Source: Paraspadella gotoi (taxonomy: Eukaryota > Animalia > Chaetognatha). From it: a DNA stretch of 64,000 nt. Below the pieces are notes generated by a model. The model was not told the origin of the DNA. It did no database searches and saw only the letters and a program-made list of their open reading frames with translations. The stretch covers positions 28,426,260-28,490,259 of the forward strand of contig CM119265.1 in the NCBI GenBank assembly GCA_051294375.1, written 5' to 3'. Made by a program: the position numbers and the translations under genes. Below, piece after piece: positions 1 through 42,939 of the stretch (positions are counted from its first letter, which is position 1; each line of letters opens with the position of its first letter).

Positions 1-40
1 TGCTGTATGATTGCTCTATCATCATACAGACGTGACCCAC

Positions 41-734
41 CGCCTCGTAAAGATCGACTGTTTGAAACAGTTCGCTTTTATCGACGCCGTATTCCTCGCA
101 GGAGCTCAGGAAGTTGCCGATGTTCTCCATCTCCTTGAAGGCCATCTTGGATTCGTTGATCTTGGGGACCGCGCCGGGATTTAACGCGTTGATCAGGCGG
201 CAGAGGCGCTGCCCGTCCTTTAACTGCGAGTGAAAGGTGTCCCTCGATCCTAAAGTCAGTCAGATTGATTATTAGTTTTGCCGCGCGTATTCGCGGAGCA
301 TCTCGGTCGGTCGGACTGTCCCTCCGTCTGCCTAATAGTGGGTCTGTCCAACTTATATTTTAAATGCTTATAACTACGAAAAAAAAACTTCAATCAATTA
401 ATTTTACTTGTGAAGTCATGCGATCGCCGAATAAGGCGATCATGAGGAAGACTTGTTCCGTTCACAATCACATAATTCATGAGATACTGAATCGTTTTAG
501 TTTTAACTCGACAGAAAGACTTGTTCCAATAGAGCTTATCAATTTTGTATGGGAACCCTGTAAATAAACATTTAGTGAAATTGTACCACCCAACTTACCG
601 GAACAATCCAATGTTTCGTCAATGTAACTGGCGATCCATTCCATCGCTTCCTTCGCCAATTGTTGGTCGTATTTTTCCTCTTTTTTCTTTTGTAATTCAG
701 CGGTGAAACCGAAGCCTTTCGGTCGAGACGCCAT
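41..734 (-). CDS. Myophilin/transgelin/calponin-family CH-domain protein, 5' exons (734-599 and 249-~41); continues beyond the window start
   Basis: MASRPKGFGFTAELQKKKEEKYDQQLAKEAMEWI splices (G|GTAAGT at 598, TTTAG| at 250) in frame to GSRDTFHSQLKDGQRLCRLINALNPGAVPKINESKMAFKEMENIGNFL..YGVDKSELFQTVDLYE, the typical transgelin/myophilin motifs. Confidence 0.93.
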
Positions 735-16889: not shown

Positions 16890-18899
16890 TTCTAAATCAA
16901 TCGATATAATAATTGAGGAATTCATCAATTAAATAAACTTATATATCAATTCATTAGTATGTTTTTATGAAGGTCTAAAACTAAGACTTTATATCTGTGA
17001 TTTTTTTCATTAAAACTAAGAAAACTTTTCTAATCTCGAATATCAATTCATCTATTAATTCGTCAGTTACTTCAGGGGCCAATTAATGAATCAATAAGTT
17101 AGCTAATGAGGCAATCAATCAATAAATCAATCATTATGTAATATTATGAATTATTAAATCAATAAATCAATCAACCCATCAATCACTAAATCCGTTAATC
17201 AACCGCCCTCTCTCCCACAGGGTCACAAAATGCACGTTCACTATCACCGTCACAACATGATGAATCACTTGGCCAATTCTCACCAACTTCACCGGGATCA
17301 CGTGAAACACGTAGTCGACCATCACCTCCACGATCACGTGCATCACAATCACTTCAACTTTCAGACGCAACATCATCTTCCTCAGCATTCAGTTCTTCAC
17401 AGGTGTGATCATTTGAAAATGTGAATGAGGGAAATATTTTCTTCTTTTGCTACTTTGCCTTCTTCTCTCTCTCTNNNNNNNNNNCTCTCTCTCCAGATTT
17501 CACTACGACCACCACTCAGCTCATCATCAAGCGAATATGAACAACAAACTATTTTATAGACCCCAAGTCAGTAACGCTTACGCCTTTGTCAAAGATCATC
17601 ATCATCATCACAAGTAAGAACTCATTTAAGTGTTTGTATTGTCTTAATATTAATTCCCTTTCATAGACGAATCATTCAATCAATCAATCAATCAATCAAT
17701 AAATGAATTAATTAATCAACCAATTAATCTATAAATCTATAAATCCCAAAATGTAAACCAATCAATCAATAACTGAATTAGCTAAGTCATCTTACAATCA
17801 TTTCCTCAAATAACTAATTAATAAATCAATTAAGCAAATAACCATTCTAATCAATCAAACAATCAATCTTTGGACCTCAGGCACAAGAGAAACAAGTACC
17901 ACCACAATTATCCATCCGAAGAAGTCGTTGATCATGAATACAGAGATCACGGATCGAGGGGACATTTGAGATTGCAGGTTTCACGGTTTCACTTGTTGTA
18001 CTTGTATTGTATCATAAAAGTTAATGTTTATATGTAAAAACAATTTATTATTAATTTCTCAATTATTACATTAGGGCCATATTTATTACTATTACTTACC
18101 TAATAAAATGTCAAAAATGTAAAAATGTTTTTTTATATAAAAGTATAAGCCACTGAGAAAATTTAAAAATAAAAAAATATATATATACTTATTTACATAC
18201 AAAAAATGTTTGTGATTCACTATTTGAATTTGGATTTTATTTTTTTTTTTTTGAAATTTTCACAACGCTTAACATTACATTACGCCTTATCATTACCAAC
18301 TGACGAAACTTACCATTAACTTACCTCACCCCGCCCACAGCCTGGACAAAACGCTGCGACGTCTCTCTCGATGCCTGATCGGTCAGGCGGCAGTCAAAGC
18401 CATCGACTGTTCGATCCCACGATAGAAGCTCAATCAGGCGCTCAATCTCAATCAAGAATAGACGCCTGGCAACCTTTGCAGAATAATCAGGCGATGCAGT
18501 CTCACGCCGGGATGCAATACCCTTCGCCCATGCAACCAGGGATGGAATATGGGATGCAATCTATGATGCAATCGGGGATCCAATCTGACATGCAAGCAGG
18601 GATGCAAGCAGGGATGCAAGCAAGGATACCATCTGACATACAATCAGGGATGCAAGCAGGGATGCAATCTGACTTACAATCAGGGATGCAAGCAGGGATG
18701 CAAGCAGGGATACCATCTGACATACAATCAGGGATGCAAGCAGGGATACAATCTGACTTACAATCAGGGATGCAAGCAGGGATGCAATCTGACATACAAT
18801 CTGGGATGCAAGGCGTCCCTTCCTATCTTCCTTCGTCCCAAACAGTCGATCTCAATTCTTTTCGACTTTCAAATGATTTCCACCCCGCTGCATCGATCA

Positions 18900-18935
<36 letters not shown>

Positions 18936-19465
18936 GCGGTAGCGCCGATCCGACCATCTCTCGATCTCTCCGCCATACGAACGATGCCGGTGAGGCTGCG
19001 GCGCTATCAGACGGCGCCGTAGATTGGACGTCTTTCGATGCGCCGTCAGAAGCAGACGCCTTGACCGACAAACGACCGACGTCTCTTCGCCGCATGGAGA
19101 AACTTCGCTACGGAGACGACGTCGGGCAAAATGTTCGTGAAGGACTGACCGACATCGAACCGACGCAGCTGTTGACGAGATCGGGACTTTATGAAGGGAG
19201 GCAGCGGATGCAGGAGATGCAGCAGCCGTCGAGATTCGGGCTGCAGATGACGTCGCTGCAAGGAAGAAATTTGCAAAATTGGGGGAGTCCGATGCAGGGA
19301 GGAATCGAAATGCAAAGGATGCAAGAGATGCAGCCGATTCAGCAGGGAAATGCGATGCAGGGGCTGCAGAGAATTCAAGGGATGCAGCAGGGAAATGCGA
19401 TGCAGGGGCTGCAGGGAATGCAGGGGATGCAGCAGGGAAATGCGATGCATAGAAGATTCTTTTAA
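16573..19465 (+). CDS. Secreted His-rich and Met/Gln/Gly-repeat protein (exons ~16573-16685, 16756-16840, 17221-17402, 17497-17613, 17881-17977, 18341-19465)
   Basis: Hydrophobic N-terminus MLIYFLVLHVTLL; exons 3-5 are very His-rich; the last exon has MQAG/MQSD/IQSG tetrapeptide repeats and QQGNAMQG repeats; GT-AG boundaries. Confidence 0.78.
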
Positions 19466-20045: not shown

Positions 20046-21946
20046 AGCCAAAGGTATCTTGCTGGGGTGGGGTGAATTTAGGCAATTCCCGACTACAAAT
20101 ACAAGGGAAATTCTATTTAAATTGTGATTGTTTTACAAAAATAAAATATATATAATTTATATAATAACAAAATATTTGTGCGGATTTTGGGGATTTCTTA
20201 AAACTATACTAGATATACCAATCGTATTTCAATTGAGCTAAACTAATAGTCATAAAAGAAATTCAATAGTACTAAAATTGTGTTTAAACATAAAATTATA
20301 TTGTTAAATAAATTTTTATTCACACATGACGAATAAGATAACAGACTCAGAGAGTAAAAAACAAAAAGTGCCATCTCTGAATCCTATAAAATCTTATAAT
20401 CTTATATCCTATAAAATGGAAAACTTAATGCGGTAGGTCTGCAAAATAAGATCAAAGAAGGATTTTCTTCAAAAGCTAATTTAAAAGAAGTCAATCTAGC
20501 TGCGTCAATCCTCTCTTTTCTCTCACTATCATTTGCTATCTCATTGTCTCTCTCCTTCTCTTTGTTCAATACAAAACGATACTAAAAATTTGTAAACTAT
20601 ATTTAAATATATCAACAAAATTTAACAATTCAAAAGATGCGGTTTAAAAAAATTTCACCAAAAGAAACAAAATTGCAAACAGAGATTTAAAAAGCGGAGA
20701 ACTGTTTCTGTTTTTTAAAAAAAAATTACAAAAATTGTTAAGAAAAGTTAAGAAACTGGATCTTTATCGCAAAACTCTGAGGCACTATCCACATTGCTCC
20801 GTCTTCGTCTCGTCGCGGCGAGAATAGAACAATAGAGAAGAAAAAGAGAAAATGAACTAAAACTCGCCGTGGCGATGGAACAAATGAACCTCATGGAGAA
20901 AAAACTGAACTTCTTCTCTGATAGAGAAGAAAACTGGAAAATGACCTCGACTTTTTGTAGTTTGGGAATTGGAATGGTATATTAGGACTAAGCTCTGACG
21001 AAAAAAGTCAGAGGTTTTTTAATATATTCTTTGACCGGCCAATGTAGATTGATGGCAATATTGCTATTGTTAAGTTTCAAAAAAATCCGACCATAAATAT
21101 AGAAAATATTAACCAAAATCTTCGGAAAATCCACCCCTTCTTTGGAAGATTTTCGCCATATAAGATTTTTCCGAATCTGACTCCCGGTTGAAAACTCTTA
21201 GAATTCCGATCGTGAGCTCCTCTTTTACTTTTACTTTAAATAAAAATTTCACCAAAATGGACTAATTCACTTTACCATGATCGTATCATATTAAAATAAC
21301 CAAATAAAATGTGAAGAAAAATTTTGAGAGCCCTTCAGACATATTTCTATCGGATTCCTGAATTTGAAGTTTATTGTAAAATGACAACATACCTTAAATG
21401 CGTTGACATTGTATTGAAGTTGAGAAATCCCTTTATTTTATATATAAAAATTCGTCAAAAATATTTTCCCGAGCTGACCAGTCTATTTGAACTTGATGGT
21501 TTGATGTCAAAATGATGGTTAATTGTCAAGAGAAAAAAAATGCGAGCCCTTGAGATGTAACAGGATCGGAATCGAGTGTTTTTACATCTGATTTTTACCT
21601 GAATTTTTCCTAGGGGCGTTGACATTATTTGGTAGTCAGATTTTAATGAATATCTCCATTGAAAAAGTCTTCCTCGATTTCTAAGAACGACTTTGATAAA
21701 TCATCAAAAAGAAGATGAATAAAGAAAAAAAAAAGATCATAAGGAATATTAACCAAAGAAACTGTCTTTCCATCTGACATAATTCAACAGGCAATGTCCT
21801 TGCAATTACCAAGGATGCAGCCAGACAATGGTCGTTCAAGGTTGCCAAAAAATAGAGACATTCATCAGAGAACATAATCGAAAACTACACGAAAAGCTCT
21901 TTAATAAGAATTCAAAAATTAAAATAATGAGTTATATCAAAATATC

Positions 21947-22136
21947 ATCGGTAGAAAATGCCGGAACGAACTTATTTTATTGTTCAATCTGTCCTTTGCC
22001 AGCAGCAAAAATACTTCATTGCTTGCTTATCTCAGATTTTAAAAGTCACGCAAGACATCACTTAGCCATGGATGAATTAATCAATGACAGCAATCCCATC
22101 GTGTGCAGTAGAGCGTTCAAATATAACAAAATATAA
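21947..22136 (+). pseudogene. Small ORF with one C2H2-like zinc finger
   Basis: FYCSICP..SDFKSHARHHL pattern only. Confidence 0.3.
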
Positions 22137-23320
22137 GATATTAAATTCCATTCATAATTGTTTTACTGTAATAAGGTCTGAAGAATTCGATGGTGATGAC
22201 CATTTTAATCGAGCCATGACCGGAGAAGCCGGTTCAGGCTCGATTTTGATTCGGGTCAGCTTCTTTGTGACGTCGTCGTCGTCGTCGTCACGCTTTTTTG
22301 TATAAAATCTACTACGCTTTTATAGTTTTGGCTGGACTTACCGTTTTTTTTTAAATAAAAATTATTATTAATTACGATGAAGTTTTATAAAAGTGTGTGA
22401 TCATAGTAAGTTAAAAATTTAGATATGGCTTCTCATCTTGAAAAAGCTCTGATATTTTTTATTACATTTGGATTTAAGTATTTTTTTGTCAGTAATATTT
22501 TATTTAGCCTCCGATTAGTAATTAATTCTTAATTTCAAATTTTGTCTCTCTAAATTTTCTTAGTCTCAAAGTTTAATATCCTGTAGATTCTCAGAGCTCG
22601 GCTCCTATTTTGTAAACATTTAGTGAAATAGATAAACAAAGGAAGAGAGACGGGAAGGAGGCAGAGAATTAAGTGCATTCCATTTTTCGGTTCCAAGGGA
22701 TTAAGTCGATTTATTAACATGGTTTAAAATTACAATTTACAACTTGGGCAATCTACAATTATTTCAGGTAACTTCAAATACTAACTAGACAGATTATGCA
22801 TAATCCAGCTCTCTATCCGTCATCTTTTGAGGGCCACAGACCACGTTACCAACATGGTGGCCAGCGTTGTTCGCTTAACGGACAGCCTCGAAGTTATCTG
22901 TGCGTACGGATATTTGATTTTGTCCGAGTTGATAAGGGGGTGATGTTGAATAATTTTTCTTTTCCCCGAGAGGTTATTAGACTGGTATGAAGGAGTTTTT
23001 CCTGATTATAAATATGGAATTGTTTTGTTTTTATTTCGATTTAGCCTCTCTGACGTTATGATGAATTATTTGGATCGAATTTTCGAGATTTTTGTATAAT
23101 TCTACGAAAACCAAAACATTAATTGGAGCCAAATACATAGATCACGAATGTTTTTTTTTGACAGTTGTTTTTCGGGTTTGAACGATTTCGGTTTTTCTCT
23201 CCACAATCGATTCGGATTACTTGCCATTAAGACGATTGCGAATTTTTCTTCGAAAAGTTGGATTATTGCGTTTTTGCGTGTGTCTCGATCTTGCAAATTT
23301 TAACGACGGAAAGAAGCGGA

Positions 23321-24492
23321 ATGGATGACAACAAGTGGGTCGAGGAGATGGAGTCGATGGACGAACTGGTTGGGAACCTGTCCGTCGGGGACGATTCCTC
23401 TGCGTCAGATGATGAGAGCGCCTTGGGCGCTGTTGGGGGCGCCGGAAGATCAGGTGTTCCCGCGGATACTTTTCGGATGGAGATGATGAGATGGCTGGAG
23501 ATATGAAGTGGACGCTAACGGCTATGGTTTTGGTTGTCATGAATTCGAGAGAGAGAGAAATGCGAGGAATGTGGAGGTTTACCTCCTGGATAGAGAGATG
23601 TTGGCGGTGACGCCGCCCGGCACGATCGACGGGTTCGGAATGGACCTACTGGTTGAGGGGCCGGGAACCGCGCTGGGACACCCGCGGTTTATGCGTCTAT
23701 TTTCGGCGGGGGAAGATGCATGGGGGCGAAGATGCCGCTTAGATTTTATAAATGGACTGACACTCTCTCGATTTGTTCGAGAGTTTTGGGAGAGGAGCGA
23801 GTAGCAAGGCCTCCGAGTCCCGTTACGGACTCCGACTCGGAGAGAAGAAATGCCGCCTCTGGAAAAGGTGGGTAACGACCGATCGGAGCCGGTGGTGGAC
23901 CGGGATGTCGAAGTGGTGCCACTCCTTCAGAGAGTGTGGTATGACCTCGTGAGGAGAATTAATATTCTACCGGCGGTTCCGGCTCAAATGGCGATTGATG
24001 GCCGACTAATCAAAACACGTCGACCATGGTTTACTTAAAAGAATTCGAATAGCCGTTTATGCTGGAGGCGAGCTGCCAGGTTCTTGGAGATGAAAAGAAG
24101 TGGGGTCAAGACAGTGATTCCTTTTTTGAGGATAACTTGTACCCCGTGATGGAAATTCCGCCTATGCGTTCGCTCGTGGATTTCATGGATAGGCATCCTC
24201 GTAAGATTTTTCAAATTCAGACGCGCCCGTTTTTTTGTAGGAAAAACGAGGTTGTGCTAATTCGGCGACGAGGGATCCATGGCACTGGACGACAGCGCCA
24301 TAGATCGATATGAAGGAACGCATAGAAGCGCGGGTCGCCAGATGAGAAGGCAGGTACACCGACAGGACCCTCCGAGAGAAAAGGCCCGTCGTAGGCAACC
24401 GTTGAGATCACACAGGACGTGGTGAATCTTGAATTATTGCTTGAGGAGTGGGACGGTATGCTCCGCTCCAGATTTGCTGGGGACTTGATATC
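23321..24492 (+). pseudogene. Degraded intronless orphan ORF, truncated where the virus-like duplicate begins
   Basis: Consecutive GC-rich ORF pieces 23258-23506, 23508-23804, 23850-24038 and 24059-24313 separated by single stops or shifts. Confidence 0.5.
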
Positions 24493-24493
24493 T

Positions 24494-24923
24494 TCCTACT
24501 ATTAGGGCCAGCAAACCACTGCTAACACTCAGCAAGATCCACAAGTCAGCCAAATTGTCAGAAGATCACAGACAATTAGCTCTGTCCAAGCAGCCATGCA
24601 GTCGACCCAATCTGCCCAAGCTGGATCACAGCATCCCTCACCCCCAAGTAATCAGCATCAACCACAACCACCCCCACAAAGCTCACAGCACCAGCAAAAT
24701 CCGTCCCAAACTGCTCAAAATGATCAAGCTCCAACTCCCCAACCACCACTTCCCTCTGTCAATACCTCACTTCCTGGTCCATCGGGTTTTCGCTAAGAGG
24801 TGAACAGGGTCCCGATGATCACCTCGGCCAAGTAAGGGACACCAACACCTCAGGAAAAGATGCCAGGACTGCAGAGATTTTCTTAACAGACGGATCTATG
24901 TTGATGTTTTAAACGAAAAAAAA
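24494..24923 (+). repeat. ~430-bp duplicate of the ORF1/ORF2 junction of the virus-like cassette (26661-27086)
   Basis: Near-identical sequence from TTCCTACTATTAG to GATGTTTTAAACGAAAA, differing by a few 1-nt indels and substitutions. Confidence 0.95.
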
Positions 24924-25207
24924 ATTCTTTAGAATATCTATATGCTTCTCTCTTAATGGCAGAACACCCCTCATGCTTAATGTTTCTTAATGTTTTTCAA
25001 ATCTGCCAACATCTTTAATTTAATACAAGTTTGAAAACAAAATTGTTGAATCTTAGAAATCAGCACGTGTTTAAGAAAACCCTTCCTACTGGCTTAATAA
25101 CCAGTGAGGAGAGGGACTTCCATCTCTTCTGTTCAATTTACAAACCCAAAACGCCCACCTCCATCGCCATCGATAATCCTATCACCAGTCACCTCATCTC
25201 AAGAAAA

Positions 25208-26963
25208 ATGTCTGTTTCAGCAGCTGGAGGACCTTCACCCTCACAGATCTTTTCTGCTAATCTATCCACAGAAGTAAAAACCAGTAATTTTACTTACAAT
25301 GGTAGGATCTTTGATGGTATTACAGTAAACTCCACTTCATCCATGTCTGGCCAAATGTTCTCAGACTTTCTAACCCTGTCCCAACGAGGCGACGTCGCTG
25401 TATCCCCAAATATCGCACACCTTCACCGATACGTTGAATTATGTAGGGAATGGTGCTTGCAGAGTGGTGCAAGAGCCATCGGTGGGAACTGTGTCCTCTA
25501 TACCAACAGGTTCCCCCAGACAGAGATAGCCCCCGCCGTGACAGTTGTACACCAAACTCAGGACATATTGAGAAGGCTTTTCCCTGGTGGAGGAAATGGG
25601 GGAGCAGGTGGGGGAGGATTCAACGTTCAAGGGCTGGCACAATACTATGCCTATATGGGCATCTCTGGAGTTGGTGGGGGAGTTGGCATGGTAATGAACG
25701 GAACATCTACCCAACAGCAGGATCCCATACCCATTAATTACAATAACGTCTTTTGGTGGGCCATTGTAGGAATGATCTTTCACGTCTCCCGCAACCAAAC
25801 CATGGAGCAACTATTGACCAGACTTCAAAGCTTTATTTTAAATTCGAACTCCAGGACAAGAACGTCTGCGACAGAGGCTGAGGTGAACTTCCTTAAGAAT
25901 GCTCTGTCTATCCACCAGTTTACCCAATGTGACTCTAGAAAATTCCCTGCATACACTCTCACAACAAAAAAATTGAGCATTGGAGTTAGACTGGGCTTTG
26001 CCCTCGTCTTTATGAATGTCACAGGGAAGCACTGCAGATGCAGTGAACCAGAGGAGCTTCCCTTTGCTTACGAACAAGCCCAGGCCCTTCATCTCTTAAC
26101 CAGGAGGTTCAATTCTGCAAGAGAAGATAACCAGAAGGTTAATCTAGGACATATTGTCCAGCATTGTTTGACAGATAGAACTTTCTTTACAAACTGCGTT
26201 AACACTGACCCCACATCTCTACAGTATACTGCAGGCTCATCAGTTCAAAATTCTTATGTTTATACCAGAGACATTCCTTCGATGCAAAATTCTGTTTCAT
26301 GGTTGCAATCAGGCATTGCCTGTATTCAGATGAGGAACTATAACTGGATTTCACAAATGCCACCAATTGTGGGCGGAGGAGGAGGTGGTGGTGGTGGAGG
26401 AGGCAGTGGTGGTGGCACCGGTGGAGGACGAGGAAGCGGCAGAGGCGGCAACTCAGGTGGGACACCCTCTGCAGGCTTCAGCAACCCTGGGCCAGCAGGC
26501 TCTTTGTTTGGAACAACAATCACTCAGGGTGGCAACAGAGGTGGAGGACAAGGTGATCCACCATCCAACCAAACGGCTGAGCTCATGAGCTTACTTAAGT
26601 CACTTATCCCCGACCCATCGCAACAGGGATCACAACAGCCACCTACAAATTCAAGCTGGTTTCCTACTATTAGCGGCCAGCAACCCACTGCTAACACTCA
26701 GCAAGATCCACAAGTCAGCCAAATTGTCAGAAGATCACAGACAATTAGCTCTGTCCAAGCAGCCATGCAGTCGACCCAATCTGCCCAAGCTGGATCACAG
26801 CATCCCTCACCCCAAGTAATCAGCATCAACCACAACCACCCCCACAAGCTCACAACACCAGCAAAATCCGTCCCAAACTGCTCAAAATGATCAAGCTCCA
26901 ACTCCCCAACCACCACTTCCCTCTGTCAATACCTCACTTCCTGGTCCATCGGGTTTTCGCTAA
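25208..26963 (+). CDS. Endogenous RNA-virus-like ORF1 (nucleoprotein/capsid-like; folded ~390-aa N-part, Gly/Gln/Pro/Ser-rich tail)
   Basis: Long intronless, CpG-poor ORF unlike the host exons; two 1-nt deletions near 26810 and 26845 relative to the duplicate shift the tail; the restored end is PGPSGFR* at 26963. The viral call rests on architecture, not on a search. Confidence 0.6.
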
Positions 26964-27006
26964 GAGGTGAACAGGGTCCCGATGATCACCTCGCCAAGTA
27001 AGGGAC
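26951..27006 (+). promoter_or_regulatory. -1 programmed ribosomal frameshift signal (second copy at 24784-24840)
   Basis: In-frame G GGT TTT, 6-nt spacer, stem 1 GAGGTGA(A)CA/TG(A)TCACCTC, stem 2 GTCCC/GGGAC; the -1 frame leads into ORF2. Confidence 0.85.
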
Positions 27007-28483
27007 ACCAACACCTCAGGAAAAGATGCCAGGACTGCAGAGATTTTCTTAACAGACGGATCTATGATTGATGTTTTAAACGAAAATCCGATACTAAACC
27101 AACTAGAGGAGGCAATTAACTTAGCTAAGCCAGAAGAAAAAATTAGGTTTCATAAAGAAAGTTCCGATGTAGTGTCCGTGTATTTATCATTGTTGACATT
27201 GCCAGAGATAAGACAGAGCAGAATTCAATGGTTGACGGAGTGGGTGGAAGGAAAGGGCACAGACAATACCGAAAAAGAACTATTGAGAACACTCAAAGAA
27301 CTCAAAAAGTATTATACAACAAGAGCTTATAAGTGGAAATCCAATGGTGAAGAAGAAGCTATTGTTAACTCTGCTGTCAAAGTAACATCTCAAAGGCTCA
27401 GGGCTAGGAAACTGAAGATCTGTGTTCCATACTATGAATATTCACCAACAAAACACTTTGAATTAGAAAAAGTCATATTCCTAAGTGCTAAAGTGAGATT
27501 AATGACAATGATATATGCTGATGAGAAGAATTATTCTGCTGCCATCAATGTAGTAGACGATGTCCTCAGGGATAGTAAGCAAGCTTTGTTGAATATACAT
27601 AAGGAGCAGGGGGCCAACATTAACTTTGATGTGCCGTTGACATTTCACAAAAGCCCTTCTAGGTATATGTTGAGGGATGAGATGTACACAAATGTTAAAT
27701 CACTATATGAACTAGACACCATAAAAGACTACTACGATGATAAGTTCCCTTCAAAATGGCTAACAGACTATGGTGTTCCCCCTCAATTTTGGTATTGGCA
27801 GAGCCTCAGAGGCAGAATTGAACCCCCAATCCCCGACACTCAATCAAGTGTGACTTCTTCTAATACTGTTGTTAACCAGGAGTTTTGTGCCAACAATACC
27901 CATTCTTCTGCTGATCCAATTCTCCCTGAACCTTCACCACCCCTAGTTACCTGAATAACAATGCCAAACTTGCCTACTGCAGAAGAAACTGGAATAAAAA
28001 CAACAGAAATTGTATATCCATCAGCAGACACCTCAGGCGGTCAAATTATTGCAGAAGTTTTGTTTCCTGATAGTGTACATGCAAATGAACCTGTTGAATC
28101 TAACACTCCAGCTGAAAACTCAAGTGAAACTCAGAAAGAGACCGAAACAACATCAGAAGAAGCAGAGACCCAAGAAGATGCTTCTGAGGATGAAATAGAA
28201 GAGACAACAACATCAAGTCAAGCCTCAAGGGGATGTAACGGACTCTGACGAAGACAGCTTATTCAACTTGTTGCTTGACGATACATCAGAGAGAAGGCAC
28301 CCCTTGGAGTTACCTGTAATAGCCAGTTATAAGAACGGGAATTTGAAAGATATGGATGAACTCATCATGTACATTGCATCTAGTACAGCAACGGACGACT
28401 TGATACAGTATTTTTCTGTTAATGATATAATCAGGACTGCTTATGGCATGTCCTCAGACTCCGCCAATGTTTCCATATATTAA
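26957..28483 (+). CDS. Virus-like ORF2 in the -1 frame (~500 aa reconstructed; 1-nt deletion ~26993, in-frame TGA at 27952, frameshift ~28225)
   Basis: ORFs 27064-27954 and 27961-28248 are in the same frame, 28268-28483 follows after one shift; folded N-part, acidic S/T/E linker, small C-terminal domain; no RdRp or RT motifs visible. Confidence 0.55.
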
Positions 28484-29098
28484 GTTGAATTTGACTCTAA
28501 GGTGGACTTTGTTATATTATTTTATCATTTGTTCTAAAAACATTTAACTGATAACGTTTTTTGCTCATGTTTTACAGGTTTATTCGACTCGTGGGGGGTG
28601 GCGGCGGGCGTCTTATCCGCTTCCCGCCAAAATTTAACAAGTTTATCCGCCTCTTAGCAACGACGACGGGCTCGCACTCTGTTTCTCGCTCGATTTAACG
28701 AGTTTATTTCTCGTTTAGCAACGACGCTGACCGTTTGGACATTCCTCGCTTCGATCAGATTTATAGTATATGTATTGTATCCTCGACTTTCACTCTTCCA
28801 TTCAGTAGAGTTACTCTAGGCTTAGGTTGGTGATGCGTTGCGCCTCCTCTTCATCCAGCGGTATATTTCATCCTCTCCCAGCGGTAAATATTTCTCACTC
28901 GGAGGTACTTTTGTTTCCTCTTCTCTCCGGGCGCGGCTCCTCGGGTCCTCGCCGATCGATTCTCCTCTTCCTCTTCTCCCTCTGCGTTGATTCTCAGAAA
29001 AGTTTCGAAGTCTTTGGGGAGGGCTTTCATAACTACGCTCTCCGGACCTTCCGTACAGACCTCTCCTCTAAAAAAAGATACCTTGTTTCAAAAAAAAA

Positions 29099-31143
29099 AT
29101 GGCGCAACGGTCTTTGACTTCTTCTTTTGTCTCTATCCCCGGTGTTCTGCGATATTTGGATGAAATCTTTCCCGTGCGCGCCGACGGCGTCCAGTTTCGT
29201 CCAGATGCCTCCACCCTTCAGCTGCATCTGCTGATGGGGGAGTTGCTCGGGCAGTTCCCAGACGACGGCGAGCCGCGTTTCTCTCAAGCGCGGTGGGGCG
29301 CCGTTCGGGCCGCCCTCCTCGCCTCCTCTTCAGAGTTTGGCATTACATATCCATTGTTTCGATCGTTTCTCTCGCGGCTCTCGGCTTGGTGAGTACTTTT
29401 TCTAGTTTTGCTTGTTGAGGGAAAAGAAAAGGTTTTCATATTGAAAATCAATCTCTCTCGTTTTCCGTTCAGTTCCAATGATCGGGCGGGCGCCTTCTAC
29501 TCCGGGCCGGCCTCTGCGCTGGTCGACCGCGCCGCCTTCGGTGGGCGTGCCGAGTACTTCACGGTCCGGCCCGTTTGGTTTGCCTGGAGGGTGGCGATAT
29601 GCCCGTCAAGGCCGTCGGCGGTGCCCGCGTCGCCGGGCGGGTCTACTACGGCCAGATCCGTCTCCCCGTGTCGGACGCCGCCAACCATCTCCCGCTGTGA
29701 GTGTATTTTTATGCGATTTTACGCCATGTTAATTCTCCTGCTTGATTTGTTTCTCTCTATAATCCTGTTTTCCTCGTTGTTTTATTTACTACAACTCTTC
29801 CATTTTATTTTCAGTGTTCAAGTCTGGCCGCACGACCAGCGCCGCTCGGAAGTTGTCGACGCATCCGCCGGGCATCTTGGGCGCTACCAGCTGCCACGTA
29901 ACCGTCCCGTGACGCCGCCGGTGAGAACCACGTAGTTCCTGCTTTTATTCTGCTTTATTTTCTGTCGTTCACCTACGTTTATTTATTTATTCATTTATTT
30001 ATTTCATATACTTTATCGTTTGTTTATTTTTGACCAATTCCTTTCTTTTTTTTCTCTGACGCCGACCATGTCGTCGTCGGTCAGAGCGGGCATGGCGTCA
30101 ACGCCTCTCGTAAGTACTCGTTGTTCTTAGCTCTTTTCGTTTGTTTTTGTTTCCGTTTGTCTGTTTTCTCAGTAATGATGGAAGCGAGATTATTCTCATA
30201 GTGTGCCTCATTGTTTTCTCAGATTCAGGCCGCGCCCGACACGACGGCGTTGACTGTCCTGGTGGGCTCCTCCCGTACTTCCGCCAGGGCGCCCCCCGTC
30301 TCCGTGGCGCCTAGGGCGTCGTCCAAGGCCGCTTCGATCTCGGCGCCGGCGCCGGCTCCAGCCCCCAGCGATCTGACGACAAGTCGTGGCGTCGTTCGTC
30401 CTTCCTCGCCCGGCGGGGAGTCGTCCGGGGACTCATCGTCCTCGTCTCCGGTGACCTCCGCCTCGTCATCATCCGAGGCCGTTTCCCTCCGCAAGTGTCC
30501 CTGGCGGCCCGCTTCCCCCTCGTCAGTCGAGGAGCTCGTCGCATCCAAATCGAAGCGGGTTCGCGGCGGGAAAAAGGCGGGGAAGGCTCGGCGGTTGAAA
30601 GGGCGGTCTTCCAAGGTGAAGGCTGCCTCCCACAAGTCATCGAAGGGGTCTCGGCGCTCACCTGTGGCGGCGCCCGAGACGGCGTCATCTGCACGGCCGG
30701 GTCCGGCGTCCTCAAAGGACCGGACCCCTAAGAAAATGTCTAAAGTTGGCGCCGCCAAGGTGACGTCGCCGGCGGCAAAGTCGTCGGGAGGCGGGGCCAC
30801 TGGGACCGGGCCCAAGGCGGCGTCTGGCTCGCCGAGGGAGAAGGGCATTCGGGGTGGGAAGGCCCGGCGCCGTTCCCGGTCTCCTGCCGCCAGCGCCAAC
30901 GCCCGCACCAACGCCACCAACAGCTACACTGCGGCTGAGGGCGCCTCGAGCGCTGCCCGGGCGCTCGCGAATTGGCGCCCGTGTTCCAATCCGGGGCAGT
31001 ACGCGACCCCATGCCGCGTTGTCGGCTCTATAACAAACCCCCGGTGCCATCATCAGCGCCTACCCGCGGCGGTCATCATGGCCGGAAGTTCTATCCCCGG
31101 CATTAGCCTTTGTGTTATTTATTCATTTTTAAATTTGTTTTAA
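29099..31143 (+). CDS. Spliced orphan gene ending in a basic S/A/P/K/R-rich region and a WRPC-x9-C-x9-CHH motif
   Basis: GC-rich blocks bounded by GTGAGT/GTAAGT donors (29389, ~29697, ~29921, ~30109) and TCAG acceptors (29472, ~29814, 30222); C-terminal motif shared with 42277-42939. Confidence 0.55.
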
Positions 31144-31889: not shown

Positions 31890-32182
31890 CCGGGGTCGTG
31901 GGTTCGAGCCCCACATTGGGCGCCGCCCTGAAATAAGTCACTGGCTAAAGAAATACTCGAGGAATAGTGGTGAAGCGTATATTGAAAAAAGACGATCACA
32001 AAAATAAAAATATTACAGAGAGGCGGAGAACAGGTCTTAACACAAGAGAAGGAAAGTGGGAAGTGAAACTCGAATGGAAAAATCTCGTGGCTGCGCGAAA
32101 CCCCCGATCGAAAAGGAGGAGGAAGCGAAATGGGAGGGGGAAGAAGATCTGCGCGTCGCCTCCTCCTCACGCTTATTTATAG
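31890..32182 (-). mobile_element. LTR-like segment (TATA-R-U5) followed by a PBS extended into the 3' half of tRNA-Lys
   Basis: Reverse complement CTATAAATAAGCGTGAGGAGGAGG...TTATTTCA-ggg-CGGCGCCCAATGTGGGGCTCGAACCCACGACCCCGG; homologous to 33038-33296. Confidence 0.75.
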
Positions 32183-33037: not shown

Positions 33038-33296
33038 GCGTGAGGAGGAGGAGATCTTCTTCTCCCTCCCATTTCGCTTCCTCTTCCTTTTCGATCGGGG
33101 TTTTCGCGCAGACACGAGATTTTTCCATTCCAGATTCACTCCCTACTTTCCCTCTCTCTCGTTAAGACCTATTCTACGCCTCTCTGTATTTTTTATTATT
33201 TTATGATCGCTTTTTTTCTCAATATACGCTTTACCACTACTTCTCGAGTTTTCCTTTTAGCCAGAGTCTTATTTCAGGGTAGCGCCCAATGTGGAG
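33038..33296 (+). mobile_element. LTR-like segment with tRNA-Lys PBS, inverted copy of 31890-32182
   Basis: GCGTGAGGAGGAGG...TTATTTCA-ggg-TAGCGCCCAATGTGG. Confidence 0.75.
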
Positions 33297-42276: not shown

Positions 42277-42939
42277 ATGGCGTTCAACGACACAAGATTA
42301 TTCTTGACGACCTCTTCCACGTCCGTATTTCCGTTCTTCTGCCCTCCGATTTCGCCGCAGCCGGCCATCATGTCCTTATCAAGCGTCAGCACCATGGAAC
42401 GCTCGTCGCGAAAGCGCTCATGGCGCCCACGCCAGTCCTCCTCGGAGCCCGACGTCGCGCCAAAGAAAGCCGTCGGTCACCACCATCGCCAGAAAGGGGG
42501 CGACGTTTCTTCAAAGGCAACGTCTCCTAAGCCAAAGGCGTCAAAGGCGCGCCTCTCGCCGGTGACGGCGCCAACACCGGCTCCCGTCGCTCCGTCGACC
42601 ACCAAGAAGGCGCCTGGCAAGTTGGGGCGAATCCCCAAAAAGACAAAGGCTGAAGCGAGTGGGAGCTCAGCTCGCCCGGCGTCTCCTACACCGCGCGGCG
42701 AGGCGCGGCGCCGCTCTCCACCGCGGTCGCAATCACCGCGAGCCGAACCGGCGCCCTTCAATGCCGCGGAGGGGGCGCATGCGGCCGCTGCTGCCCTGGC
42801 CCGGTGGCGTCCATGCGCCGACCGCCACCGGTATTCTAGCGATTGCCGGGTGGTCGGGTCGCTATATCACCCCGTCTGTCATCATAAGCAGACGCCACGC
42901 GGCGGGCGTCGCGGTGGGCGTGGCCCATATCGGAACTAG
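42277..42939 (+). CDS. Basic S/P/K/R-rich orphan protein with WRPC-x9-C-x9-CHH motif, paralogue of the 30211-31143 ORF
   Basis: FNAAEGAHAAAAALARWRPCADRHRYSSDCRVVGSLYHPVCHH vs YTAAEGASSAARALANWRPCSNPGQYATPCRVVGSITNPRCHH. Confidence 0.65.
   Translation: MAFNDTRLFLTTSSTSVFPFFCPPISPQPAIMSLSSVSTMERSSRKRSWRPRQSSSEPDVAPKKAVGHHHRQKGGDVSSKATSPKPKASKARLSPVTAPTPAPVAPSTTKKAPGKLGRIPKKTKAEASGSSARPASPTPRGEARRRSPPRSQSPRAEPAPFNAAEGAHAAAAALARWRPCADRHRYSSDCRVVGSLYHPVCHHKQTPRGGRRGGRGPYRN

Follow-up and report, generated by a model that had tools for sequence, protein, structure and literature searches.

The GGGUUUU heptamer followed by a pseudoknot is the capsid-RdRp fusion signal of the totivirus/artivirus IMNV. 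The Gag-Pol frameshift of this virus is listed among known cases (PMC3542737, Table 4), and the cassette that we describe here, which lies in a 64-kb window of DNA (the whole stretch that was analyzed), resembles it in having a putative structural ORF, a slippery heptamer by the stop of this ORF, and a downstream structure. Unlike the totivirus/artivirus system, ORF2 of the cassette has no RdRp motif, neither a coat nor an RdRp profile was matched, and the composition is not dsRNA-like. Frameshifts into ORFs that do not encode a polymerase are already known (PMC3542737), and in Acyrthosiphon pisum virus a -1 frameshift produces a capsid extension (PMC3542737). As in that virus, a -1 slip at the end of ORF1 would give a minor extended form via a non-polymerase 3' ORF (PMC3542737). 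While ORF1 of Acyrthosiphon pisum virus is a long picorna-like polyprotein (PMC3542737), ORF1 of the cassette is a single orphan of ~585 aa, with its own leader and poor in CpG.

Frameshift sites have been predicted in gene overlaps of rhabdoviruses, and in some viruses such overlaps lie in the N unit (PMC4334499). If the source of the cassette was negative-stranded, the likeness would be a second ORF in one transcription unit, reached by a proposed -1 slip (PMC4334499). The rhabdovirus sites are U-rich motifs with a stem-loop and are predictions only (PMC4334499). Unlike these sites, the cassette has G GGU UUU and a pseudoknot leading into an ORF of at least 300 codons, and no rhabdovirus N homology was found. 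A frameshift also occurs on segment 4 of Jingmenvirus. This segment encodes a capsid and a membrane protein (PMC7150890), and the cassette is similar to it in the pairing of a putative capsid ORF with a second, non-polymerase ORF (PMC7150890); the second Jingmenvirus protein has many transmembrane segments (PMC7150890), whereas ORF2 of the cassette has none (highest 19-residue hydropathy, 1.07). For negative-strand viruses, the literature surveyed contains -1 frameshifting as predictions only, namely the rhabdovirus overlaps, a tunicate PB1 contig with a predicted -1 frameshift (10.1101/2024.12.15.628590), and a proposal for Ebola L, and in none of these is a nucleoprotein joined to a long ORF through a pseudoknot-driven slip. 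Should the source have been negative-stranded, the cassette would reveal a way of expressing genes that is new for such viruses.

In invertebrates, endogenous viral elements of non-retroviral type are intronless and compositionally foreign, lie near repeats, are part-duplicated and decaying, and occur as more than one related insertion. The cassette has the same set of features; it is present in the DNA of several individuals, with contigs crossing its 3' edge and with segregating deletions. Such elements are normally recognized by their homology to known viruses, but none was found for the cassette, which belongs neither to the totiviruses nor to gag-pol elements (it has no polymerase and no Gag) and fits no virus family. 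We interpret the cassette (Table 1) as endogenous DNA copied from an mRNA or a segment of an undescribed, perhaps negative-stranded RNA virus in which a -1 frameshift fused ORF1 to ORF2, and we assign this reading a probability of roughly 0.6. The initial annotation had also proposed an insertion from an undescribed RNA virus; composition, layout, and decay make such an origin likely, while homology to any virus does not contribute to this judgment.

Table 1. Positions of the cassette features in the 64-kb window.
Feature	Position	Strand	Remarks
Upstream copy of the 428-nt repeat	24493..24919	+	ORF1-tail end, full frameshift signal, -1-frame start; 98.4% identity to 26661-27086
Upstream-copy signal	heptamer 24784-90; stems 24797-806/24816-25, 24809-13/24836-40	+
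Leader, ~290 nt, 5' of ORF1	24920..25207	+	CpG-poor, o/e 0.49; contigs continue from leader into ORF1
ORF1 as in the window, 560 aa	25208..26890	+	ATG 25208; stop 26888-90
Slippery heptamer G GGT TTT	26951..26957	+	Main copy; second instance 24784-24790 in upstream repeat copy
-1-frame stretch, ~35 codons, slip site to first ORF2 ATG	26958..27063	+	Open in upstream copy; third-position clustering in diverged copy
Predicted H-type pseudoknot	26964..27006	+	S1 26964-73/26983-92, S2 26976-80/27002-06
ORF2 first part, 296 aa from ATG	27064..27954	+	Mostly helical prediction, low confidence
Acidic low-complexity stretch and 94-codon C-terminal piece, other frame	27955..28483	+	Decayed rest of ORF2 or broken ORF3 from ATG 27961
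A/T-rich 3' tail	28484..28580	+	Host-level CpG density resumes from about 28585

The insert of ~4 kb, at about 24493-28580, is intronless and decaying and is embedded in repeat-rich eukaryotic DNA. A calponin/transgelin-type exon (2-259, minus strand) is the sole clear host gene in the 64-kb window, and transgelin and calponin are the nearest relatives of this calponin-homology exon among solved structures; the exon points to an animal host. The observed/expected CpG ratio is 0.35 in both ORF1 and ORF2, compared with 1.04 in the whole window and 1.30 and 1.24 in the two flanks, and the two 1.5-kb blocks of the cassette have the lowest CpG of the 42 blocks in the window. All three codon junctions are depleted (observed/expected in ORF1: 4/25, 7/24, and 21/42), and CpG density changes in sharp steps near 24470 and 28585, at the cassette edges. 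The lowest CpG ratios are those of ssRNA(-) viruses and high ratios those of dsRNA viruses, regardless of host, and strong CpG loss is unusual in dsRNA and invertebrate ssRNA(+) viruses (PMC10714974). Because the ratio is low in both ORFs, a negative-strand source is favored, albeit at somewhat less than even odds (PMC10714974). The parallel with IMNV-like totiviruses drawn in the initial annotation holds for the signal only; the composition is closer to that expected of a negative-strand RNA virus than of a totivirus and speaks against a dsRNA source. Host methylation is an alternative cause, gene-body methylation in invertebrates being another possible route to CpG loss. A look for repeated gene-start and gene-end signals of the negative-strand type gave a few A-run motifs, near 25053-25080 and 28533, among which no consensus clearly recurs.

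On its left side, the cassette adjoins a CpG-rich high-copy repeat (23000-24492) with many variant contigs and no Pfam match, the contig depth of which is several- to many-fold above that of the cassette. At the right edge of the cassette, a polypyrimidine run that ends in CAG (28560-28578) appears splice-acceptor-like by eye, and the insert may sit in an intron.

A canonical -1 signal consists of an X XXY YYZ heptamer, a spacer of 5-9 nt, and a downstream structure (PMC3542737), and G_GGU_UUU is listed among the most shift-prone heptamers (PMC5009743). The cassette has a heptamer in the 0 frame with the stop two codons on, the spacer and a predicted structure, and an open, likely coding -1 frame. 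The heptamer, the 6-nt spacer, and both stems lie exactly where the initial annotation had placed them, although it did not mention that S1 has one A-A mismatch (9 of 10 pairs; S2, 5 of 5); the spacer contains the stop of the heptamer frame (26961-63). None of 300 dinucleotide shuffles matched the pseudoknot pair count of the signal. When all 1,959 X XXY YYZ sites of the window were ranked by helix energy, the two copies of the signal came first and second, the values at the top being -18.9, next -16.6, and then -12.5. When pairs were simply counted, 15 of 250 heptamers sampled from the window equaled the signal, and nearly all of these were within A/T runs. In the nested minimum-energy fold, the 5' arm of S1 pairs with a more distant downstream site, which makes this fold a competitor of the pseudoknot. 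Judging from the sequence, the signal is real and not a product of chance, frameshifting itself being predicted, and it was very probably functional in the source. Rfam gave one chance-level match and no frameshift family. A pattern of the heptamer plus the S1 arm occurred at 63 loci in IMG/VR, none of them with tblastn similarity and one with the partner arm close by, and a fuller pattern of the signal occurred at none.

ORF1 encodes a compact-looking region of ~387 aa (pI 8.8) followed by a low-complexity tail rich in Gly, Ser, Gln, and Pro. The heptamer had been described as being in the ORF1 frame two codons before the stop. This is true of the upstream copy, in which the ORF1 tail runs in one frame through the heptamer to its stop and the -1 frame, as had been quoted, is open as far as the ORF2 start, but not of the ORF1 that the window contains, which ends at 26888-90 in another frame. 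Nine public runs from one organism and three studies contain the stretch, with no RNA run listed among them, and the contigs of seven were compared with the window; two of the runs, X7 and X8, have equal depths and are apparently a single data set. The repeat in these short-read contigs shows three single-base gaps relative to the main copy in six of seven runs and at least one of them in the seventh, and the unique parts of the cassette agree with the window almost letter for letter. Because the contigs of other individuals lack the frame breaks of the window inside the 428-nt repeat while the unique parts match, these breaks are probably assembly errors, which may reflect failed polishing in repeats. 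ORF1 of the source likely extended to the stop at 26963, with a length of about 585 aa. The 428-nt repeat was also considered as an LTR and rejected, as it is internal coding sequence.

The copies of the cassette are not exhausted by those in the window. The contig depth of ORF1 is about twice that of ORF2 or more in every run, hinting at a second copy of ORF1, with the reservation that depth is no copy number; one run has a 4-nt insertion in the ORF1 tail. The left junction of the upstream copy to host repeat DNA is a loose end in four of four runs. At 24916-24920, the leader contig starts with ~50 letters unlike the window in three of four runs, so that the window may be misassembled, or may carry a private variant, where the upstream repeat copy meets the leader. 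At 27085, a contig exits the repeat end into sequence other than ORF2 in three of four runs, which shows that the cassette also occurs in another, truncated arrangement.

In all seven runs, a further contig (1,035 nt in X6, 431 nt in X9) aligns to the cassette across the signal region alone. The block aligned to the upstream copy is 24779-24875; against the main copy, the block is 26946-26992 (47 nt at a threshold of at least 80% identity), with one difference whose position is not fixed, such that the heptamer or a stem may be hit. Among the differences listed (at least four, from 40 of 234 rows), those at 24826, 24833, 24843, and 24844 are found in four of four runs. All listed differences fall within the final loop or downstream of S2; the stems, 11 nucleotides of which are third positions of the -1 frame, carry none of them. 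On each side of the aligned block, 30 letters of the diverged copy are still window-like. In X7, judged by eye, five of seven differences in the upstream flank are at third positions of the ORF1 frame (p 0.045), and eight of nine in the downstream flank, before the ORF2 ATG, are at third positions of the -1 frame (p 0.001); in the two flanks together, the count is 13 of 16 (joint p 1.2e-4), in 60 letters of one contig from one run. Because the differences cluster at third positions while the signal stays alignable, the pattern indicates a coding stretch before the ATG, a switch of frame at the signal, and conservation of the signal as RNA. The -1-frame stretch between the slip site and ORF2 is likely to be coding. 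This pattern, taken from 60 letters, is the strongest evidence for function, and the second copy is a natural comparison for a short, testable signal.

The diverged copy was found in seven of seven runs, and its divergence shows selection but not where selection acted. It could be the working paralogue in a host gene family that makes use of -1 frameshifting and was perhaps domesticated long ago, as PEG10 was; the window would then contain a decaying duplicate, and CpG loss would be explicable by gene-body methylation. We regard this as unlikely. ORF1 has no relative in any other organism among 1.84 billion representatives, no Gag, PNMA, or other domain was found, and the composition edges are sharp next to a repeat; moreover, saturated third positions beside a frozen RNA signal would be typical of fast-evolving RNA genomes. 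The RNA-virus reading can be taken further, to an unknown negative-strand lineage in which a pseudoknot-driven -1 slip fused the nucleocapsid to a large cofactor domain, with a fixed share of fusion per nucleocapsid, and two related strains of which were endogenised independently; this extended version is speculative, and we give it perhaps one chance in a few.

The downstream ~500 aa, treated in the initial annotation as one ORF, exist as such in reconstruction only. ORF2 is interrupted twice, by a stop codon (27952-54) and, around 28200-28245, by a break in frame, and the read contigs list no difference at either place. An 8-nt deletion in ORF2 was seen in three of four runs and a 1,088-nt deletion in two of four, both of the latter from the look-alike pair X7/X8. 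Because the stop and the frame break are shared and the two deletions segregate, ORF2 is decaying, and it is decayed in all individuals seen. A separate acidic ORF3 could start at an ATG (27961) that lies 6 nt past the 27952-54 stop and has no UGGGA ahead of it. As had been noted, the downstream ORF has no visible RdRp, protease, or RT motif: a motif scan of ORF2 gave no GDD/SDD/GDN, SGxxxT, protease, RT, or CCHC zinc-knuckle motif and one YYDD word without context, and Pfam was blank. The signal statistics, the conservation in the diverged copy, and the absence of such motifs lend good support to the predicted -1 frameshift into a non-polymerase ORF. A 39-nt match at 28204-28242, with seven differences, was taken as chance.

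HMMER searches with ORF1 residues 1-387 over 1.84 billion representatives of protein clusters gave no match, and the cassette points to a virus lineage that is recognizable by its recoding signal alone. Word-seeded searches (for ORF2, limited to 162-518 aa) found no relative of either ORF, and there was no homologue of ORF1 or ORF2 in the ESM Atlas, PDB sequences, IMG/VR, or metagenomes, nor of the last piece (27955..28483) in Pfam, PDB sequences, or IMG/VR. Pfam and NCBIfam searches with pieces of the ORFs returned weak matches far below cut-off and no Gag, PNMA, RT, RdRp, or coat domain. ORF1 matched neither a totivirus coat protein, very remote homology to which is possible, nor a profile of a negative-strand N protein of Mononegavirales, Jingchuvirales, or their kin, and no polymerase gene (L) of the source virus was found among the 150 of 151 window ORFs that were scanned. 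AlphaFold single-sequence models of the two proteins, mostly helical at low confidence, had pLDDT values of 33.0 for ORF1 and 39.5 for ORF2 and are unusable; Foldseek on these low-pLDDT models gave no match at E ≤ 0.001. With no sequence relative and with models of pLDDT 33 and 39.5, the earlier description of ORF1 as nucleocapsid-like and ORF2 as P-like was not confirmed, and the labels "nucleocapsid" and "P-like" are guesses. The mildly basic compact part of ORF1 and its low-complexity tail fit a nucleocapsid protein, and that ORF1 is a nucleocapsid or capsid is somewhat short of an even bet. A bacterial locus (L064) with 33% identity across 58 aa, its E value being relative to 17 candidates, was rejected as chance.

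The order of a structural ORF, a -1 slip, and a downstream ORF is also that of Gag-style elements, and partial duplication and several junctions are likewise what a mobile element, non-autonomous or of an unknown kind, might leave; ORF1 would then be gag-like, and frameshifting would lead into an ORF2 that encodes no enzyme. The cassette lacks, however, a CCHC knuckle and any protease or RT motif, and it has no Gag match in Pfam; its depth is low and its CpG ratio different when compared with the neighboring repeats, and the 428-nt repeat is internal rather than terminal, all of which make a mobile element improbable. We hold in equally low regard a piece of a dsRNA totivirus-like or positive-strand virus, with ORF2 as an unrecognizably diverged replicase or a capsid extension. 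Frameshifting of the -1 type is common in those viruses, for the replicase or for the capsid extension of Acyrthosiphon pisum virus (PMC3542737), but dsRNA viruses and the ssRNA(+) viruses of invertebrates do not usually show CpG loss as strong as that found here (PMC10714974), no RdRp or coat domain was matched in Pfam, and ORF2 lacks a GDD-type motif and has an acidic low-complexity middle. Within this alternative, a positive-strand virus with a capsid extension may still be the source. CpG can be scarce in small DNA viruses as well, and the origin of the cassette is inferred rather than proven, but a DNA-virus piece, or entry into the -1 frame by splicing, polymerase slippage, or reinitiation with the pseudoknot serving another role, is very improbable, as a simple pattern found no splice-donor-like site in 26850-26963 and the heptamer, spacer, stop, and pseudoknot lie in exactly canonical geometry.

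In the RNA virus that we prefer as the source, ORF1 would be an abundant structural protein, nucleocapsid or capsid, with a disordered tail. Most ribosomes would terminate just past the heptamer and release plain ORF1, while the pseudoknot would pause a fraction of them, which would slip to the -1 frame and add ~35 linker residues and the ORF2 domain. As in Gag-Pol or the capsid extension of Acyrthosiphon pisum virus (PMC3542737), frameshifting would thereby fix a low ratio of the extended form, by which the ORF2 domain would be carried into the particle or nucleocapsid. The leader, the two ORFs, and the short tail would have made up one mRNA or segment, which may have been reverse-transcribed, inserted beside the high-copy repeat, and then part-duplicated. 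The copy in the host probably no longer yields the fusion, or yields a shortened one, and ORF1 may still be readable.

Several other features were observed in the window. An A-rich frame of 117 codons at 21783-22133 has, by eye, C2H2-zinc-finger-like Cys/His spacing, with no Pfam match. Two ORFs (30736-31143 and 42277-42939) have a common Cys/His C-terminal motif after Ser/Pro/Lys-rich stretches, as in a repeated gene or element family. An inverted repeat pair (31911-32172 and 33038-33294; 84% over about 260 nt) surrounds around 870 nt and is either MITE-like or a short repeat present twice in opposite orientations. Finally, a 364-aa ORF at 18371-19465 contains a 12-nt tandem repeat that codes for units rich in Met, Gln, Gly, and Ser.
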